19,175 nucleotides of DNA from positions 1-19,175 of the forward strand of contig JAWCFL010000028.1 in assembly GCA_038858525.1 (NCBI GenBank). The letters run 5' to 3'. The position numbers and the translations under genes are program-made. Each line of letters starts with the position of its first letter. Within the stretch, counting starts at the first letter, position 1. Source of the stretch: Candidatus Jordarchaeales archaeon (GTDB lineage Archaea > Asgardarchaeota > Jordiarchaeia > Jordiarchaeales > Freyrarchaeaceae). Shown piece after piece: positions 2 to 19,175 of the stretch. Under the pieces are notes generated by a model, which ran no database searches, was not told the DNA's origin, and was given only the letters and a program-made list of their open reading frames with translations.

Positions 2-406
2 TCAACGTTGCCTTTTAATGTTCCTCTTTATGAACCCTATTACTTCCTCCGTCATAGTTCCGGGGCCAAACACCTCCGCTATGCCAACCTCCTTAAGCTT
101 GGGAACATCCTCATCCGGTATTATCCCGCCAGCTATGACGAGCACGTCATCCACCCCGTTTTTCCGCAGAAGCTCCATCACCCTTGGAAGCAAGGTCATA
201 TGCGCACCGGAGAGTATGCTCAAGCAGAGGACGTCCACATCCTCCTGAATGACCGTTTCAACTATTTGCTCCGGCGTCTGCCTCAACCCGGTGTATATGA
301 CCTCAAAGCCGGCATCCCTGAGCGCAGCAGCGATTATTTTCGCTCCCCTATCATGGGAGTCGAGCCCCGGCTTAGCGACGAGCACCCTCACCCTTCTTCC
401 GCTCAC
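2..406 (-). CDS. Cobalamin (B12)-binding small subunit of an acyl-CoA mutase (IcmB / MCM C-terminal-domain type), 134 aa
   Basis: [13 protein letters not shown] carries the base-off/His-on DxHxxG motif, plus SILSGAH and GGIIP motifs. GTG start with GGGAGG 8 nt upstream; TGA at 2-4; 13 bp downstream of the large subunit. Confidence 0.95.
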
Positions 407-419
407 CGTTTCAGCCTCC

Positions 420-2099
420 CTAGAACACTATCAGCTCCTGATATTCCCCATAAACCTCTTTCAGAGTCTTTGTTATTTCTCCTATGCTGGCATAGACCTT
501 AACCGCGTCAAGTATATAAGGCATAAGGTTCTCATCCCTCTCCGCCGCCCTCCTCAGAGCTGCAAGTCTCTCCTCGACCCTGCCATTGTCCCTCTCCGCC
601 TTAACCCTTCTCAACCTTTCAACTTGTAGCCTCTCTACCTCTTCATCTATCCTCAATATCGGAACCTTAACCTTCTCATCCAAAGCGTACTTGTTGACTC
701 CAACCACAACTCTCTCCCCTCTCTCTATTTCCTGCTGGTACCTTCTGGCGCTCTCAGCAATCTCCCTCTGGAAAAACCCTTTCTTGATGCCCTCCACGAC
801 TCCGCCCATCTTCTCTATTCTATCAAGGTACCTGAAAGTCTCCTCAACCAACCTTTCGGTGAGCCACTCGACGTAGTAGGAGCCGCCGAGCGGGTCAACA
901 GTGCTGCACACCCCGCTTTCGTAAGCTATGATCTGCTGTGTTCTAAGAGAGACCCTGACAGCCTCCTCCGTCGGCAACGCTAAAGCTTCGTCGTACGAGT
1001 TTGCGTGAAGCGACTGTGCGCCTCCTAGAACAGCCGCCAGCGCCTGAATAGTAACCCTAACAATGTTGTTGAGGGGCTGCTGAGCTGTGAGGGTGCACCC
1101 TGACGTCTGAACGTGCATCCTAAGCCACATTGAGCGTTCCTTCTTAGCGTTAAACCTTTCCTTCATCAGAATAGCCCAGACCTTCCTTGCCGCTCTAAAC
1201 TTAGCTATTTCCTCAAAAAAGTCGTTGTGCGACGCGAAAAAGAACGATAGCCGAGGTGCGAACTCGTCTACGTCTAACCCTCTCTCCATGGTAGCCTCAA
1301 CATATGTTACGCCGTCAGCTATGGTGAATGCCAGCTCCTGGAGGGCTGTCGCCCCTGCTTCACGTATATGATAGCCGCTTATGCTTATAGGGTTCCACTT
1401 AGGCATTTTCCTAGTGCAGTACTCTATTAGGTCAACCGAGAGCTTAAGTGCGGCTTCAGGGGGGAATATGCAGAGCTTCTGAGCGATGAACTCCTTCAAG
1501 TTGTCGTTTTGCGTCGTTCCGCCCAGCTTCTCCATAGGAACCCCCTGCTTTTCACCCACTGCCACGTACATCGATAAGAGAATAGGGGCAGGCATGTTTA
1601 TAGTCATTGAAGTGGTCACCTTGTCAAGAGGTATGCCGTCGAAAAGCATCTCCATGTCCTTCAGCGTCGAGACCGCCACGCCGCACCTTCCAACCTCACC
1701 CATAGAAAGCGGATCATCCGAGTCAAGCCCCATAATGGTAGGGTAGTCGAAGGCGACGCTCAGCCCTGTCTCCCCCTCGCTCAGCAAGTACTTGAAGCGC
1801 TTATTAGTGTCCTCAGCAGTCCCGAAGCCTGAGAACTGCCGCATCGTCCATATCCTGCTTCTGTACATGGTTGCATGGATGCCACGCGTGAACGGGTACT
1901 CTCCTGGAAATCCTAAATCACGCAGGTAGTCAAGTCCAGCTACATCCTCCGGTGTGTAAACGGGATTAACCTCGAACCCCGACGAAACCCTAAAGTTTTC
2001 CTCCCTCTCAGGAAGCGCCTCAAGCCACTTGCTGCGCGTCTCACGTTCCCATTTCTCCCTCGCCTTACTCAATTCACCCATCTTCCTTTCATCAAACAT
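420..2099 (-). CDS. B12-dependent acyl-CoA mutase large (substrate-binding TIM barrel) subunit with isobutyryl-CoA mutase-like specificity residues, 559 aa
   Basis: Motifs [65 protein letters not shown] and [11 protein letters not shown] moved the start from 2192 to ATG 2099, which has GGAGGG/GGTG upstream; the extra 31 aa are not family-like. Confidence 0.95.
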
Positions 2100-2143
2100 C
2101 ACCAAACCCTCCACACTAACAAGCAAAAAATCGTCTTCAACAC

Positions 2144-2157
2144 TAATAAAGCGTTTG
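2144..2157 (-). promoter_or_regulatory. Putative BRE/TATA promoter of the mutase operon
   Basis: The minus strand reads caaacg-CTTTATTA about 45 nt upstream of ATG 2099. A T-rich tract (ttaattttctattttt) lies further upstream, after the flavin reductase stop. Confidence 0.4.
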
Positions 2158-2255
2158 ACGCAACACTCCACTGACGATAACAAGGGAGACAAGTAAAAAT
2201 AGAAAATTAAGAACGAAGTGGAAGGATGAAATAGGCTGTTCTCTACGCTTCTTAC

Positions 2256-2771
2256 TCATTTTCCAGGTTCCTTGATGTATGTGGCCGCTTTCTCCGGCGT
2301 CTTCCCCTGTTTCACTTCGTGATAATAGGCGTACGTCATGGGTTCCGCATCGTTCAGAATTTCCGCGTCAACAACCCTTCCGATGAATATTGTGTGGGTT
2401 CCAACATCCACGCTGCTGACAACCTTTGCTTCGACGTATCCTACAGTGTTCTCAAGGACGATGGGTGCTCCCGTCACGCCAAGCTTATACTTTACGTTCT
2501 CGAATTTTTTTATCTCTTTTCCTGTTCTGAAGCCGAATATCCCAATGAACTTTAAAGGTGTGTCCCTTGTCAGAATCGAGACAGAAAAAACTCCACTCTT
2601 CCTGATAAACTCATGCGTCAAGTTCTGCTTGTTTATGCTTACAGCTATAGTAGGCGGGTCAGCTGTAACCTGGAAAACCGTGTTGGCTATCTGGCCATTG
2701 AGCTCCCCATTATTCCTCGAAGCGACAATATACAACCCGTAGCTGATCTTGTGAAGCGTCTTCAAGTTCAT
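2256..2771 (-). CDS. Flavin reductase-like FMN-binding split-barrel protein (flavoredoxin / Hrb N-terminal-domain type), 171 aa
   Basis: ISYGLYIV, NGQIANTVFQVT, PPTIAVSINK, NLTHEFI, GTHTIFIG and PMTYAYYH are typical of this family. ATG with GAGGGG upstream. No C-terminal rubredoxin CxxC motifs. Confidence 0.9.
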   Translation of the reverse strand: MNLKTLHKISYGLYIVASRNNGELNGQIANTVFQVTADPPTIAVSINKQNLTHEFIRKSGVFSVSILTRDTPLKFIGIFGFRTGKEIKKFENVKYKLGVTGAPIVLENTVGYVEAKVVSSVDVGTHTIFIGRVVDAEILNDAEPMTYAYYHEVKQGKTPEKAATYIKEPGK

Positions 2772-6802: not shown

Positions 6803-7651
6803 GTGAGGGGCGAGAAGAACAGGGTTTACGTTATGGATTGCCTTGAGGGGATGAGGAGTCTTCTCGACGACGGTGAAGTCAGCGTCATCGTCACCTCTCC
6901 GCCATACAATATCGGAGCTAGCTATAACAAGTATGAAGATGTGCTTCCTAGAGAGAAGTACTTGGATTGGATGGAAGAGGTGGCGAGAGAGTGTAGACGC
7001 GTTCTGAGTGATGATGGTTCCTTTTTTCTAAACGTCGGCCATAAGCCCAGCGACTGGTGGGTTCCGCTGGAGGTAGCATTCAGGTTCAGGAAGCACTACG
7101 CCCTCCAAAACGTCATCATCTGGGTTAAGTCCATAGCGATAAGCAAGGCTGACGTAGGAGACTACCCGAACATCAGGGGTGACATAGCAGTTGGCCACTT
7201 CAAGCCTATAGGTGGGAGGCGCTTCCTGAACGACTGCTTCGAATACGTGTTTCACTTCACCAAGAGCGGGGAGGTCGAACTTGACAGGCTGGCAATCGGC
7301 GTGCCGTACCAGGACAAGTCCAACATTGGGAGGTGGAAGGCTGCAACGCAGGATTTGAGGTGCAGAGGCAACACGTGGTTCATACCTTACGAGACAATTC
7401 AGAGACGCGAAAAGCAGAGACCGCACCCAGCAACCTTCCCACCAAAGCTCCCAGAAATGTGCATAAAGCTGCACGGCCTCCGAAAAACCAAGCTTGTCCT
7501 AGACCCATTCATGGGAATAGGAAACACAGCCGTAGCATGCACAAGGCTCGGCGTCGACTGGATAGGCTTCGAAATAGATGAATACTACGCAAGCATAACG
7601 GAGAAAAGAGTCAAAGAAGCCAAGGAAAGTTTACTACAGTTTATTAGGTAA
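6803..7651 (+). CDS. Beta-class N4-cytosine DNA methyltransferase, M.MjaV-like (likely GTAC), 282 aa
   Basis: Motif IV TSPPYN is N-terminal and motif I DPFMGIG is C-terminal, which is the beta order. The segments [39 protein letters not shown] and [18 protein letters not shown] match my recollection of M.MjaV. The specificity is inferred. Confidence 0.93.
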
Positions 7652-8248
7652 CGGTTTAATGCTCCATTCTCTTACAATGTTCTCCTTCTTGTAGAGCTCT
7701 ATGTTGCTCGTATTAAACTCGCACTTCAAGCTGACTTTGATCCTAGCTGCATCTATCATTTTGAAACCAGTAATTTTTTTCTTCTCATGGAGGAAGCCGA
7801 TAATTATGTGACATGCATTCCTCGTAACCTTACTGAATTCAACAGGCTCGTAGTAGAACGTTCTAAACGTGCTGTTTAATTGATTCTTTTCCGCTAGTTT
7901 AACCTCAATATAATATGCTTTTCCTCCACGTTCAATCAGTATGTTAGGGTAGCCCGCAAACTTGTTTTCAGGTATTATGCCCGAAAGCTTCTCTCTCAAC
8001 ATACCCTCGAGCCTAACGCTAACTTCGTTCGGCCTCAGGGAACTGAAGTCCTCACCTTGCGCCTCCTCAACAACCTCTTTAGCTTTTTCATAGATTTCAG
8101 CGACAACTTCGTCATCTTCCTCCGTTATCGAGTAAACATCGTAGCCTGTTGTCATTTTGATTACATAACTAAATGGAATGTCCCGTACTCTTCGTAAAAT
8201 GTTTTCGAAAAACTCCTTCCCCGGCAATCTACCTGAAATATCCGTCAA
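7634..8248 (-). CDS. Type II restriction endonuclease-like PD-(D/E)xK-fold protein, probable cognate of the MTase, 204 aa
   Basis: RPNEV...AGYPN...YIEVK layout. It is convergent with the MTase and overlaps it by 18 bp. TTG start with GGGAGG upstream; AT-richer than its neighbours. Confidence 0.75.
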
Positions 8249-14349: not shown

Positions 14350-16776
14350 TTAGATTGCTTCGAGCTGTTCGACCTTTGACCACCCTCCCTCCTTCGTGAC
14401 CATGTATACCGTGTCTGCTGCGTCTTCGAGCTCCCTGTCATGGCTTACCACTATCAGTTGCGGGATTACCCTCGCCTCCTCCCTGAACCCCTTCTTGAGT
14501 ATCTCTATGAGCTCTCTCCTTCTCTCCTCGTCTAGGAAGACTGTTGGTTCATCCATGATCATCATGCTAATCTTGTCCCCCGCTATAACTTTAGCTATAG
14601 CCATCCTTAGGGCTATGGCAAGCGCAACTCTTTCCCCTCCGCTTATAGTGTCCACGCTCTGGCTTCCGGAAGGCCCTACAACAGTCAGCTCGTAGTCCTC
14701 GTCCAACTTGACGTCTGAGTACTCCAAGTTAAACTTGTTAAGGTACTCCTTCGTGTAAGATTCTATTTTTGGCTTAGCTCTGGCTCTTATAAGCTTCTGG
14801 ATGCCATCTTTTCCGTAGGCATCCCTAACTTTCTCAAGAAGCATAATGAATGATTCAAGCCTTTTAACTTCCCCCTCCACTTCTTCAAGCTTCCTAGCCC
14901 TCTCCTCGCGGTTTTTTAACTCCTCTCCTAACCGTTTCTTCTCGCCTTCCAGCCTAGCGAGCTCCCTCCTCTCCTCTTCAAGCCTAGCCTTAACTCGCTC
15001 AGCCTCCCCTTTTACAGCCTCATACTCTCTCTCATCATATCCTAATTCATCCATCTCTTTTTCAACAACTAAAAGCTCCTTTTCAGCCTCCTCTGCCTCC
15101 TTCATTGCAATATTATAAGCTTCCACCAGGATCTCCTCGCTTCCGAGCCCCCTTAGCTGACTTTCAGCCTGCCTATAAGCCTCGTAATCCGCCTCTAATC
15201 TGTCAGCCTCTTTTCGCGCATCCTCTATTTGCTTCTCCAATTCGACCAGTTTTTCAAGCTTAGACCTGGACTCCTCAAGCTCCTCCTCCATCCTCCTTCT
15301 CCTCTTCCTTTTATCCTCCAATTCCTCTCTAAGGCTCTTAATCTTCTCCACGTCAATCTGCTCGATCCCGGTTTTTCTTTTATTTTCCTCCTTAAGCTTC
15401 CTCTCTGCCTCCTTCATCTCTTTCCCAACTCTTTCTTTTTCCTCCTTGAGCTTTGCCTCCTCCTCGAGTAGCTCTTTTATCAGTCTCTCCCTGTGCTCCT
15501 CAGTCAGCTCTCTTCCGCAGAGGGGGCACTTCGCTTTTGCCTCACTAAGCCTCTTAACCTTATCCTTGCTGTCTTCTATCCTACCCTCCAGCTCACCCAT
15601 CCTACCCTCCAGCTCCCTTATCCTATTGGTCAAATCCTCGATTTCTCTTTCAACCCTCCTCTTTTCATTTTCACTAATGGCTGAAACATTCTCCATGTTA
15701 ACCTCTACACCAAGCAAACGTGAGTAATCAGTCATCATCTTGTTTATCTTTCCTTCCAATTCTTTCTCTTCCTTTAAGAACTCCTTAACGTTCTTTTCCT
15801 GTATTCTGACAGCCTCCCTTGCCCCCTCATACTGCCTCCTCTCCTCTCCAAGCCTTTCAGCCTCATTTTTGAGGGCAACATACCTTTCATACCCTTCCTT
15901 TCTCTTCTCTACCTCCCTCTTAAGGCTCTCAAGTTTTCTAAGACTTTCCTCGGTAGCCTTCACTTTCTCCTTTTTTCCTTCAAGCTTAGCCTTTATCTCG
16001 ACACGTTTCACGTTAAGCTCCTCGAACCTCCTCTTTTTCTCCTCTATTACTTTTAGCTTCTCCTCAGCTCTCACAGCTTCCTCCTCAAGCTTTCTGGCTA
16101 ACACTTCCACTTCGCTGATCTTATCTTCCACGTTAGCCAGCTCCACTCTTAGCCTTTCGAGTTCCTCCATAACTCTCTCCTTCTCCTTCAGTTCCCCCCT
16201 TAGCCCCTCAAGCCTCTTCTCATATTCTCCAACTATTTCCCTCATCATGAGCCACGCTTGCTCGAAGTCATCTATTCCCAGGAGCTTTGATACTAGCTTC
16301 TTCCTTTCAGCGGGTTTCTCGGTGACCAGCCTCTCTATTTCGCCCTGCCGGACGTAAACCGAGTTCTCGAACGTTTCCTTCTCAACATCAAGTATCCTTG
16401 CAATCTCTGGAAGCAGCGTCCTGGAGCCAGCCTCCCTTGTGATAGGGCGCTTTCCGCTCTCCGTGATCTCGTATATGACCCCTTTAATGTCGCATCCCTC
16501 CTTTTTTCTCTCGATATTCCACTCGGCGGCGTATCTCCCCCTACCTTGTATTGAAAACTTGAGGCTAACCCTGGCGTGCTTAGCTTTCCTGTTAACCACG
16601 TTTTCATCCTTCCCCCTGGAGTGAAGCTTGAAGAGAGCGAAGCTGACGCCGTCCAGAATGCTGGTCTTACCTGCCCCATTGGGCCCAACTATCAATGTGA
16701 CGCCCAAGTCAAACTTCATCTTAGTTTTCTTATGAGAGACGAAGTTTTCCAGCTCCAGCTCTTCTATTATCACCAC
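14350..16776 (-). CDS. rad50: DNA double-strand-break repair ATPase Rad50, about 808 aa
   Basis: Walker A GPNGAGKTS, Q-loop YVRQGEI, central zinc hook CPLCG, long coiled coils, signature ISGGE, Walker B/D-loop IMDEPTVFLD and H-loop VSHD. The start may be the second GTG (16773), which overlaps the mre11 stop as GTGA. Confidence 0.96.
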   Translation of the reverse strand: MVIIEELELENFVSHKKTKMKFDLGVTLIVGPNGAGKTSILDGVSFALFKLHSRGKDENVVNRKAKHARVSLKFSIQGRGRYAAEWNIERKKEGCDIKGVIYEITESGKRPITREAGSRTLLPEIARILDVEKETFENSVYVRQGEIERLVTEKPAERKKLVSKLLGIDDFEQAWLMMREIVGEYEKRLEGLRGELKEKERVMEELERLRVELANVEDKISEVEVLARKLEEEAVRAEEKLKVIEEKKRRFEELNVKRVEIKAKLEGKKEKVKATEESLRKLESLKREVEKRKEGYERYVALKNEAERLGEERRQYEGAREAVRIQEKNVKEFLKEEKELEGKINKMMTDYSRLLGVEVNMENVSAISENEKRRVEREIEDLTNRIRELEGRMGELEGRIEDSKDKVKRLSEAKAKCPLCGRELTEEHRERLIKELLEEEAKLKEEKERVGKEMKEAERKLKEENKRKTGIEQIDVEKIKSLREELEDKRKRRRRMEEELEESRSKLEKLVELEKQIEDARKEADRLEADYEAYRQAESQLRGLGSEEILVEAYNIAMKEAEEAEKELLVVEKEMDELGYDEREYEAVKGEAERVKARLEEERRELARLEGEKKRLGEELKNREERARKLEEVEGEVKRLESFIMLLEKVRDAYGKDGIQKLIRARAKPKIESYTKEYLNKFNLEYSDVKLDEDYELTVVGPSGSQSVDTISGGERVALAIALRMAIAKVIAGDKISMMIMDEPTVFLDEERRRELIEILKKGFREEARVIPQLIVVSHDRELEDAADTVYMVTKEGGWSKVEQLEAI

Positions 16777-17909
16777 GAGCCCTCCCTGAAAAACTTCTCA
16801 ACAAGCCTCTTGGCTTCATCCATCCCCTCTCTTCCGCCTCTTAAAGCGTTAAACAGCTCCCATGCAAACTCCGCGATGTCTCCCCCCAGAATCTCGCTCA
16901 ACAGCTCTTTGTGGGATATCGTCTTCCAGCTAGATAATTTGAACTCTCTTTCAGCCTCATCCTCGAATTCAGGTCTCCAGTGGAGAACTTTTCCGGAAAA
17001 CACCTTCTCAAGGACTTCTAGAGCCACTCGCCTATCGATGCCTGAACCAGTAACCCTGACGTGAACCACAGGCTTCCTCCCTCCAAGCTCCCTAACAACT
17101 TTTTCCACGTCTTCTTTTAGTTGCTCGTACCTTAACTCGATCTCGAACTGCGGCCTGACATCTAAGTTTACCGGCTGAACTTCGGGTAGATCCCCGCTCA
17201 GGTCTACCAGGTAGAATCCCTTCCCGTTTCTTCTCCACTCATCTATTTCGTCTCTTCTCGTTATCTCTGTTGATCCAGCGTATGCCAGTATGCCTCCCCC
17301 GAGGGTCATCTTTCGCCTGCCGTGAAGATGACCCATAGCGTAGTAGCTGGCCCCCACAGGTATTTCGCCAACCTCAAGCTGAAAATCATAGCTCATGTAA
17401 ATGTTTATCGCCTGATGCATAACCACAACGCTTCTCCAGTACCCCTTACCCTCATCAACTATCCTGGAGAGCTCCTCCAGTAGCACGTCTCGGTGTCTCC
17501 TTGTCATGTTAACTACTCCGCCTATGTACACCTCTCTTCCGTCAGCCTTTATCACGCACCCCTTCCTTCCCCCTCCACCCTCAACACCTAGGAGCGTTAA
17601 CTCCTCCTCGAAAAGCCTGTGAGGCGGCATCCCCCTTCTCTTGGGAAAATCATGATCCCCGAGAACAGCATACACTTTAACCCCCTTCTCCCTCAGCTTT
17701 TTCAGTTGCGCCTTAGCGGTGTATAGGGCCTTCACCGACGGCCTAAAGGAGTCGAACATGTCTCCCGAGTGAACCACAACTCTTACGTGGTCCTCGAGAA
17801 CCTTCTCGGTAAATTCCTCGAAAGCCTTGCTGAAGTCATCTTCTCTCTCATCTAAGTTGTACTGCTTGTAGCCTAGATGCGTGTCGGAAACATGCGCTAT
17901 GAGCACCAT
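16770..17909 (-). CDS. mre11: DNA double-strand-break repair nuclease Mre11, about 379 aa
   Basis: Phosphoesterase motifs HVSDTHLG, SGDMFD, GDHD, MHQ and GHLH, plus YAGS; located between herA and rad50. Start is ATG 17909 or GTG 17906, with GGTGA upstream. Confidence 0.96.
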   Translation of the reverse strand: MVLIAHVSDTHLGYKQYNLDEREDDFSKAFEEFTEKVLEDHVRVVVHSGDMFDSFRPSVKALYTAKAQLKKLREKGVKVYAVLGDHDFPKRRGMPPHRLFEEELTLLGVEGGGGRKGCVIKADGREVYIGGVVNMTRRHRDVLLEELSRIVDEGKGYWRSVVVMHQAINIYMSYDFQLEVGEIPVGASYYAMGHLHGRRKMTLGGGILAYAGSTEITRRDEIDEWRRNGKGFYLVDLSGDLPEVQPVNLDVRPQFEIELRYEQLKEDVEKVVRELGGRKPVVHVRVTGSGIDRRVALEVLEKVFSGKVLHWRPEFEDEAEREFKLSSWKTISHKELLSEILGGDIAEFAWELFNALRGGREGMDEAKRLVEKFFREGSW

Positions 17910-17916
17910 CAATCAC

Positions 17917-19175
17917 CTAACCCATATCAAGCAGTTCGTCTATTTCTCTCCTTCTCTCTTCAACCCTGCTCCCCCTCCTCCACTCTGATACGACGTCAAT
18001 GTCTGATCCGACGAGCTTCCCCCTGTACCTGTCTATCTTTACTAGTGAGGGAACCCTCACCATCATTCCCAGCACTACCGCCTCCCCGGTGTTGAGAGAT
18101 GGAAGCTGGCTGAGAAGCTCGTCGCTAAGCGCCTCGCTTGCCGCTTGGACATGCCTCTGGTCCGAGGGCTCGACGAGCTTAAGTATTATCATGTTGTTGA
18201 CTTGGGAGAGAGCGTTGACGCTTAACGCCTTCGGCCTTTGACTCACAAGGCAGAGCCCAACTCCAAACTTTCTCCCCTCACGCGCCACCCTGCTAATCCA
18301 GTAGCTCGACAACGTATCCTCGCTTGTTGGAGCCAGTATGTGGGCTTCCTCCACCACTGTTAAAACTGGATGCCTGAAACCGCGTCCCCCTCCTTCGATA
18401 ATGAATTTTTTTCTCTCCTCGAGGAGCCTTCTAAGCGTGTGGCTCACCACTACATCAGCGCACTCCTCGTCAACTTGGCCTAGATCCACGACGTTGGCAT
18501 AACCAAGCCTAAACTTGCTTACTATGTCGCCCACACCCGGTCTTATCACCCTCGAGTACTTATCCTCAAACCCCTCAACCTTGTTTAGTATTGGAGCCTT
18601 CTCCTTTCTGTTCTCCTCCCCGCTGCTCAGCTCCTCCTTAAGGAGCTCCAGGAAGTGTGCAGGGTCTTCCCCCCTCCTAATTTTGTCCATGGCGTTCCTA
18701 TAGGCTTCTCTAAATATTCTTTCCTGCACATGGTATTCTGGTCTTATGTTCATCAGCTGCATAAGCTCCCCGACGCTTAGAGTGCATGGGTCGAGTATTG
18801 GCGTCACGGGGTTAACGTTGCCATCACCAAGGTCAGAGTTAACGTACTCGGAGTGCATGTCGAATAGCACTACGGTTCCCCCCATTTTAACGATCCCATC
18901 TGTTATGACTGCAACCGTGTTTGACTTTCCAGCGCCTGTGACGGCGAGTATCGCTAGGTGGCGTGAAACCATGCGGTTCACGTCGATGCATACGGGCACC
19001 TCGTCGTGCGATATCAATGTCCCTATTCTCAGCGTAGAATCTCCCCGTTCCCCAAAAACCCTCCTCAGGGTTTCACTGTCAGCCCTCTTAACTTCAACCC
19101 CTGGTGGGGGCGGAGTACGCGGAATTCGCAGTTCCTCGACGTCGCCGAGCACCTCAACAACCCCCTTAACGTACA
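17917..19175 (-). CDS. herA: Bipolar DNA helicase HerA, 5' end (HAS barrel) cut off by the window edge
   Basis: RHLAILAVTGAGKSN (Walker A), FDMHSEY, VVEEAH (Walker B), AREGRKFG (arginine finger) and SQRP. The frame stays open to the window end (YVKGVVEVLGD...), so 19152 is not the start. Confidence 0.95.
   Translation of the reverse strand, partial: YVKGVVEVLGDVEELRIPRTPPPPGVEVKRADSETLRRVFGERGDSTLRIGTLISHDEVPVCIDVNRMVSRHLAILAVTGAGKSNTVAVITDGIVKMGGTVVLFDMHSEYVNSDLGDGNVNPVTPILDPCTLSVGELMQLMNIRPEYHVQERIFREAYRNAMDKIRRGEDPAHFLELLKEELSSGEENRKEKAPILNKVEGFEDKYSRVIRPGVGDIVSKFRLGYANVVDLGQVDEECADVVVSHTLRRLLEERKKFIIEGGGRGFRHPVLTVVEEAHILAPTSEDTLSSYWISRVAREGRKFGVGLCLVSQRPKALSVNALSQVNNMIILKLVEPSDQRHVQAASEALSDELLSQLPSLNTGEAVVLGMMVRVPSLVKIDRYRGKLVGSDIDVVSEWRRGSRVEERRREIDELLDMG

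Follow-up and report, generated by a model that had tools for sequence, protein, structure and literature searches.

The question raised by this locus of a Jordarchaeales (Asgard) archaeon is which acyl-CoA is rearranged by a protein that automatic annotation assigns to the methylmalonyl-CoA mutases. The gene lies at positions 420..2099 on the minus strand of the window, by which we mean the whole analyzed stretch of 19,175 nucleotides, the first bases of contig C28 in an assembly of 2.09 Mb that comprises 63 contigs and is 92.7% complete. A preceding sequence-only reading of the window had noticed Phe and Gln at the two positions where methylmalonyl-CoA mutases (MCMs) hold the substrate carboxylate with Tyr and Arg, and had warned that an automatic label would hide the actual reaction. 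The labels proved to be of precisely this kind, as databases call the protein, designated P0001 here, either "methylmalonyl-CoA mutase (family protein)" or "acyl-CoA mutase large subunit family protein". Our analysis indicates that P0001 is probably the large, substrate-binding and catalytic subunit of a heteromeric adenosylcobalamin (AdoCbl)-dependent isobutyryl-CoA mutase (ICM) of the IcmA/IcmB type (EC 5.4.99.13).

The open reading frame (ORF) of P0001 starts with ATG at 2099 and ends with the stop codon at 420-422, giving a protein of 559 aa. This start is preferred over an upstream TTG at 2192, because homologues measure 559-561 aa and because it is the one called on 23 contigs that encode an identical protein. 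Membership of the TIGR00641/PF01642 family follows from a TIGR00641 score of 821.8 bits (cut-off 303.8) across residues 36-555. Against the MCM equivalog model NF006944, the protein scores 652.7 bits, under the cut-off of 876; as this model spans the B12 domain as well, it penalizes split enzymes, so that the low score is weak evidence when taken by itself. The model for the fused mutase IcmF, NF045497, returns 379 bits, far under its cut-off of 1,500.

Phe at position 89 together with Gln at position 207 marks ICM and IcmF, which, like the poor activity of MCMs mutated at Tyr89 or Arg207, is literature knowledge (Ratnatilleke 1999; Cracan 2010; Jost 2015; Thomä 2000). Translation places both codons of P0001 exactly where the sequence-only reading had located them, with TTC for Phe89 at 1833..1835 and CAG for Gln207, within LKEFIAQKL, at 1479..1481 (both minus strand). 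The register of the two residues was obtained from a phmmer search of P0001 against all chains of the PDB. The best solved relative is the 2-hydroxyisobutyryl-CoA mutase subunit HcmA (4R3U) with 606 bits, aligned end to end over residues 8-559, followed by human MUT (517 bits), Mycobacterium tuberculosis MCM (477 bits) and Propionibacterium shermanii MutB (458 bits). Identity to a solved structure reaches ~ 55%, and the active-site alignment to HcmA and the three MCM structures is ungapped, which bears out the claim that Phe and Gln stand at the positions of Tyr89 and Arg207. In human MUT and M. tuberculosis MCM, the counterpart of Phe89 is the Tyr of TIRQYAGF, with no gaps nearby; in P. shermanii MutB it is position 89, where chain 5REQ, presumably the Tyr89Phe mutant of that protein, reads TIRQFAGF. 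Similarly, all three MCM structures place the Arg of KEFMVRNTYI opposite Gln207, again without gaps. In HcmA, the residue facing Phe89 is Ile90 (TMRQIAGFG), Gln207 is matched by Gln208 (KEYMAQKEY), Ala116 corresponds to Asp117 and Asn198 to Ala198. Thr85, Arg87, Gln197, Tyr243 and His244 of P0001 are the same as in MCM. Judged by these alignments, P0001 carries neither the residue pair of MCM nor the triad of hydroxyacyl-CoA mutase (HCM).

The remaining parts of a heteromeric mutase are found next to the large subunit. The B12-binding, IcmB-like small subunit P0002 (134 aa, 2..406, minus strand) starts 13 nt past the large-subunit stop and matches TIGR00640 with 188.8 bits (cut-off 57.45); it is the sole gene of that grade in the assembly. 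Its DxHxxG motif, D16-S-H18-D-R-G21 (DSHDRG, at 344-361), is that of base-off/His-on cobalamin binding. The window ends one base past the P0002 stop. Six conspecific contigs with an identical mutase continue 9 nt past the small subunit with a gene for a 500-aa protein, and this product is a fusion of a MeaB domain (residues 25-283, 283 bits) with a CobA/CobO/BtuR adenosyltransferase domain (residues 330-500, 214 bits). On one of these contigs the fusion gene spans L014:12108-13610 (plus strand). In the present assembly its last 223 codons lie at the end of contig C38 (G000:C38:15177-15845, minus strand; 100% identity), while the N-terminal 277 codons fall into the gap between contigs C28 and C38. 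The first impression that MeaB is missing from the genome was therefore dropped, and the check for meaB suggested by the sequence-only reading ends with the gene directly downstream of the mutase in the conspecific assemblies. Hence, the sequence-level features by which an ICM would be recognized, namely the Phe/Gln pair, a separate small subunit and a MeaB-type chaperone, are all present.

One of the conspecific assemblies has its MeaB-CobA gene called in two pieces of 168 and 375 aa (L016:12108-13837), at a locus that exceeds the others by ~ 227 bp. The break in the assembly of the window may be explained by an insertion or strain variant here. In Bathyarchaeota (L021), the genes for MeaB and the adenosyltransferase are adjacent and unfused, indicating that the fusion is a local event.

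All 120 nearest homologues, 69-84% identical to P0001, keep its residues at ten aligned active-site positions, Phe89 and Gln207 included, and the signature is therefore not a product of chance. The nearest non-identical homologue (84%) belongs to "Candidatus Freyarchaeota", followed by proteins of Bathyarchaeia at ~ 70%. Among 80 named loci, taken from contigs with one genome per species, 55 mutase genes encode Phe/Gln and 28 Tyr/Arg. The archaeal hosts of Phe/Gln enzymes comprise Bathyarchaeota/Bathyarchaeia, Aenigmatarchaeota, Thermoplasmatota, Promethearchaeota and haloarchaea (Natrialba), and the bacterial hosts include Thermus, Chloroflexota, Acidobacteriota, Nitrospira and Actinomycetota. 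With this distribution, the earlier view that an ICM signature is remarkable in an archaeon loses its ground, as the signature is not rare in either domain. The same holds for the suggestion that an MCM-like QND motif hints at a differing substrate: position 198 is Asn in 44 of the 55 named homologues with Phe/Gln, bacterial proteins among them, and Thr or Ala in nine and two, respectively. Being the majority state of the Phe/Gln clade, Asn198 is no sign of an unusual substrate.

A tree of 111 sequences, combining the named loci with family representatives (FastTree, LG+gamma, SH-like support), separates the two signatures. One clade (support 0.96) holds 61 Phe/Gln sequences and one His/Gln outsider, and Phe89 is invariant in all 61. 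Within it, P0001 belongs to an all-archaeal subclade (support 0.92). The Tyr/Arg clade, supported at 0.91, contains a second large subunit of the same genome, described below. Only four positions distinguish the clades at a conservation of at least 85%, namely 89 (F/Y), 207 (Q/R), 122 (L/Q) and 208 (K/G). Four long-branch Phe/Gln representatives are placed elsewhere with negligible support, and 150 family representatives display dozens of residue combinations at positions 89, 207 and 116. One of these, P0131 (Ile/Gln/Asp), was considered as the cluster to which HcmA itself belongs and rejected, as its 521 bits to 4R3U fall below the 606 bits of P0001. In two Anaerolineales/Anaerolinea metagenome-assembled genomes (L038 and L059), genes for a Tyr/Arg and a Phe/Gln large subunit stand in tandem on the same strand, 0.4-2.5 kb apart.

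The genomic company of the two types differs as well. We clustered the ORFs found up to 6 kb from the mutase, annotated the cluster representatives with Pfam and compared 53 loci with only a Phe/Gln enzyme to 26 with only a Tyr/Arg enzyme; the p-values of this test take related genomes as independent and overstate the significance. Genes expected around an MCM concentrate at the Tyr/Arg loci: a glyoxalase-fold, epimerase-like protein of 135 aa occurs at 9/26 of them versus 0/53 Phe/Gln loci (p = 1.5e-5), a decarboxylase beta subunit (OAD_beta) at 7/26 versus 0/53 (p = 2e-4), and a carboxyltransferase at 10/26 versus 3/53 (p = 5e-4). In contrast, any beta-oxidation gene is found at 17/53 Phe/Gln loci and only 2/26 Tyr/Arg loci (p = 0.02). 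Acyl-CoA dehydrogenase and a 400-aa thiolase each accompany 8/53 Phe/Gln enzymes and none of the 26 Tyr/Arg enzymes (p = 0.048 for either), with less pronounced differences for 3-hydroxyacyl-CoA dehydrogenase (7/53 versus 1/26, p = 0.26), enoyl-CoA hydratase (8/53 versus 2/26, p = 0.48) and CobA-type adenosyltransferase (6/53 versus 0/26, p = 0.17). Despite the overstated significance, the direction of this contrast is clear. Both the tree and the neighborhoods split the two enzyme types as the sequence-only reading had predicted, which supports its proposal of a mutase acting on carboxylate-free acyl-CoAs.

Gene orders within the subclade of P0001 offer a greater level of detail. In Aenigmatarchaeota, the arrangement is thiolase-EtfA-EtfB-acyl-CoA dehydrogenase (ACAD), followed after further genes by adenosyltransferase (ATR)-mutase; an uncultured archaeon displays EtfAB-acyl-CoA synthetase-ACAD-ATR-mutase-small subunit-MeaB, and Thermoplasmatota ACAD-small subunit-MeaB-mutase-ATR. 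The locus of a 69% identical homologue reads small subunit-MeaB-mutase-ATR-ACAD, with a gene for an ADP-forming acyl-CoA synthetase ~ 2.5 kb upstream. In the 84% identical relative, the order is mutase-small subunit-MeaB/CobA-lactamase_B-thiolase-DUF35.

A check of the genome for a second, Tyr/Arg mutase, also suggested by the sequence-only reading, gave a positive answer. Contig C9 (G000:C9:2530-4098) encodes a large subunit of 555 aa with TMRQYAGFG and KEYIARGMY, which is 66% identical to P0001. The two paralogues differ exactly at the contacts to the substrate carboxylate, the pattern that would be expected of two specificities rather than of drift. The C9 gene sits in a beta-oxidation cluster, beside two thiolase genes, one of them paired with DUF35, and genes for an acyl-CoA dehydrogenase and a 3-hydroxyacyl-CoA dehydrogenase. 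Overall, the genome holds at least five acyl-CoA dehydrogenase-like genes, along with thiolases, enoyl-CoA hydratases, several 3-hydroxyacyl-CoA dehydrogenases and three 2-oxoacid:ferredoxin oxidoreductase genes of the alpha type. The pathway partners of MCM, epimerase and carboxyltransferase, are absent from the window; in the 92.7%-complete assembly no carboxyltransferase (Carboxyl_trans, PF01039) was found, and candidates for methylmalonyl-CoA epimerase are sub-threshold only (66 bits versus 115).

Taken together, these data let us infer the substrate, direction and physiological role of the enzyme along the following lines. P0002 would bind AdoCbl in the base-off/His-on mode via the histidine of its DxHxxG motif. 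Homolysis of the Co-C bond would then yield the 5'-deoxyadenosyl radical, which would abstract a hydrogen from the acyl-CoA held in the barrel of the large subunit, and 1,2 migration of the thioester carbonyl would interconvert isobutyryl-CoA and n-butyryl-CoA. As the carboxylate of methylmalonyl-CoA or succinyl-CoA is held by a Tyr and an Arg for which P0001 has Phe89 and Gln207, the pocket is predicted to fit an uncharged methyl group instead. The downstream fusion of MeaB GTPase and CobA adenosyltransferase would make and load AdoCbl. In the cell, valine would be converted via 2-oxoisovalerate to isobutyryl-CoA, which the mutase would turn into butyryl-CoA for beta-oxidation to two acetyl-CoA; isobutyrate as the source, or the reverse direction, is possible. 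Methylmalonyl-CoA would be handled by the C9 Tyr/Arg paralogue.

Several known systems invite comparison with P0001. In architecture, it shares with IcmA/IcmB of Streptomyces cinnamonensis the separate large and small subunits and the DxHxxG motif of the latter; it differs in its archaeal host and in the 500-aa MeaB-adenosyltransferase fusion. The S. cinnamonensis IcmA likewise has Phe and Gln at the two specificity positions. IcmF (4XC6), which follows the same Phe/Gln logic, is likewise associated with a G-protein chaperone and presumably catalyzes the same reaction. However, IcmF is one chain of ~ 1,090 aa, whereas P0001 has 559 aa and its chaperone is fused to the adenosyltransferase instead of the mutase. 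An assignment of P0001 as IcmF was rejected, as the single-chain architecture of B12, G-protein and substrate domains is lacking. In favor of a two-subunit ICM, NF045497 also found no IcmF above its curated cut-off in five genomes whose Phe/Gln enzyme consists of two subunits. With MCM (MutB 1REQ, human MUT 2XIJ and the C9 paralogue), P0001 has the fold, the radical machinery and, besides the five shared residues named above, Asn198 in common, and it differs in Phe for Tyr89, Gln for Arg207 and the genomic company. HcmA/HcmB of Aquincola tertiaricarbonis resembles it in the two-subunit architecture and in Gln at 207/208, and departs from it in Ile90, Asp117 and Ala198. Finally, Syntrophothermus lipocalidus isomerizes isobutyrate to butyrate and carries an ICM cluster, Slip_0757-0760, in which genes for the large subunit, the small subunit, a MeaB-like protein and a cob(I)alamin adenosyltransferase stand together (PMC5017805). 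This gene set equals the one found here and speaks for the ICM assignment.

Three other readings of P0001 have to be weighed against an isobutyryl-CoA mutase. The enzyme might act on a carboxylate-free acyl-CoA other than the C4 pair, such as isovaleryl/pivalyl-CoA, 2-methylbutyryl/valeryl-CoA or another short branched acyl-CoA, with the substrate arising from leucine, isoleucine or alkane breakdown. The Phe/Gln pair as such proves only the loss of the carboxylate contacts, the dozens of combinations at positions 89, 207 and 116 point at diverse specificities within the family, genomes of the same order hold a third paralogue with Phe/Phe, and a side activity with pivalyl-CoA belongs to the properties of IcmF. 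We nevertheless regard this reading as unlikely, given that both native and engineered pivalyl-CoA mutases replace Phe by a smaller residue while Phe89 never varies in the clade, and that the neighboring genes are those of straight-chain C4 oxidation (acyl-CoA dehydrogenase with EtfAB, and an acetoacetyl-CoA-type thiolase).

The database labels would agree with a working MCM, a redundant isoenzyme with an unusual active site, and so would the 66% identity to the Tyr/Arg paralogue and the single small subunit and single MeaB in the assembly. Yet both carboxylate ligands are replaced in P0001, and single Tyr89Phe or Arg207Gln mutants of the P. shermanii enzyme have reportedly lost activity by orders of magnitude. 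Moreover, the NF006944 score stays below its cut-off, epimerase-like and decarboxylase beta genes occur at none of the 53 Phe/Gln loci, and the genome already holds a Tyr/Arg enzyme, which makes a second MCM very improbable. Marginally less credible still is a hydroxyacyl-CoA mutase of the HCM/RCM type, converting 2-hydroxyisobutyryl-CoA to 3-hydroxybutyryl-CoA: HcmA is the best solved relative and has Gln207 in common with P0001, but the Ile90 and Asp117 of HcmA are replaced by Phe89 and Ala116, and position 198 is Ala in HcmA and Asn in P0001.

Several points weigh against an isobutyryl-CoA mutase and keep our assignment at the level of a probability. The specificity of the archaeal clade of P0001 is assigned from sequence, and the link between Phe/Gln and ICM is taken from literature knowledge, the tree having been built without an experimentally characterized ICM (Streptomyces IcmA, IcmF). 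A tblastn search against plasmids for such an enzyme returned only matches labelled as MCM, the best Streptomyces match being Tyr/Arg, and a search for longer, fused homologues retrieved MCM-type fusions only. The closest solved relative, HcmA, is a 2-hydroxyisobutyryl-CoA mutase, indicating a shift of specificity in this branch of the mutases. The substrate range may also be broader, as IcmF and other Phe/Gln enzymes turn over isovaleryl-CoA and pivalyl-CoA too. Besides the inflated significance of the neighborhood test, beta-oxidation genes taken singly are marginally enriched (p about 0.05), and the immediate neighbors in the window, a flavin reductase, a trehalose phosphatase and a creatininase-family protein, are uninformative on the substrate.

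An additional aspect concerns the partners of the two large subunits. This assembly combines two large subunits with one small subunit and one MeaB. Two large subunits and a single small one recur in each of the relatives G009, G020 and G025, and three large and two small subunits are present in G010-G014. In the closed genome G011 of the same order, the large subunits are Tyr/Arg, Phe/Gln and Phe/Phe; one small-subunit gene adjoins the Phe/Phe gene only, and the other is free-standing. Because the Tyr/Arg and Phe/Gln genes of G011 have no adjacent small subunit and one free-standing copy is available, sharing suggests itself. We tentatively consider it possible that in Jordarchaeales and related Asgard archaea one B12-binding subunit and one MeaB-CobA protein may serve ICM-type and MCM-type large subunits alike. 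If true, the small subunit and MeaB-CobA would form a shared, exchangeable cofactor module.

The third paralogue, ~ 44% identical to P0001, was seen at L136, L139, L140 and L141 (genomes G010, G013, G014 and G012, respectively) and in G011 (G011:C1:3243174-3244748). It displays Phe89/Phe207 with Ala116, Asn198, Phe122 and Val208, and has its own adjacent small subunit. For its specificity type, we found no counterpart among characterized mutases.

Upstream of the mutase, an intergenic stretch (2100..2255, minus strand) contains a T-rich run that follows the preceding gene, the TATA-like element CTTTATTAG and GGAGG ~ 10 nt before the ATG. It likely holds a predicted promoter of the mutase operon's own, together with its ribosome-binding site. 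An Rfam scan of the window gave no RNA family, a cobalamin riboswitch included. The adjoining gene (2256..2771, minus strand) encodes a 171-aa Flavin_Reduct-domain protein (PF01613, 128 bits); in every conspecific contig it adjoins the mutase, and in the 84% relative it does so in divergent orientation. This divergence and the 156-nt spacer with its T-run and TATA-like box led us not to count the gene as a member of the operon. The corrin reductase CobR presumably belongs to the Flavin_Reduct family, and it is a speculative thought that the flavin reductase of the window might serve the adenosyltransferase as a source of cob(I)alamin.

Two other groups of genes in the window deserve mention. 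An N4/N6 DNA methylase (6803-7651, plus strand) and its convergent 204-aa partner (7634-8248, minus strand) form a probable type II restriction-modification pair; the partner has no match in the Pfam scan of the window, and the precomputed annotation of the conspecific contigs assigns it to the MjaV family PF27324. An archaeal DNA-end-resection set occupies 14350-19152 on the minus strand, with the HerA helicase at 17917-19152, an Mre11-like phosphoesterase at 16770-17912 and Rad50 with its zinc hook at 14350-16776; no NurA was noted beside them in the window.

In the open literature searched, we found no link between isobutyryl-CoA mutase and Asgard archaea, and the publications checked on the metabolism of Freyarchaeia and Jordarchaeia do not mention mutases. 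The sole match naming both "isobutyryl-CoA mutase" and "Bathyarchae" is a Cuniculiplasma proteome study. The enzyme type itself is already known and widespread in bacteria and archaea, and the assignment of P0001 is an annotation correction, useful but incremental. Its relevance lies in the generic labels, by which Asgard archaea, Bathyarchaeia and other uncultured archaea would be misread as performing propionate/succinate metabolism. More probably, the Phe/Gln genes in these uncultured archaea mark a link from valine or isobutyrate to butyrate that feeds beta-oxidation.

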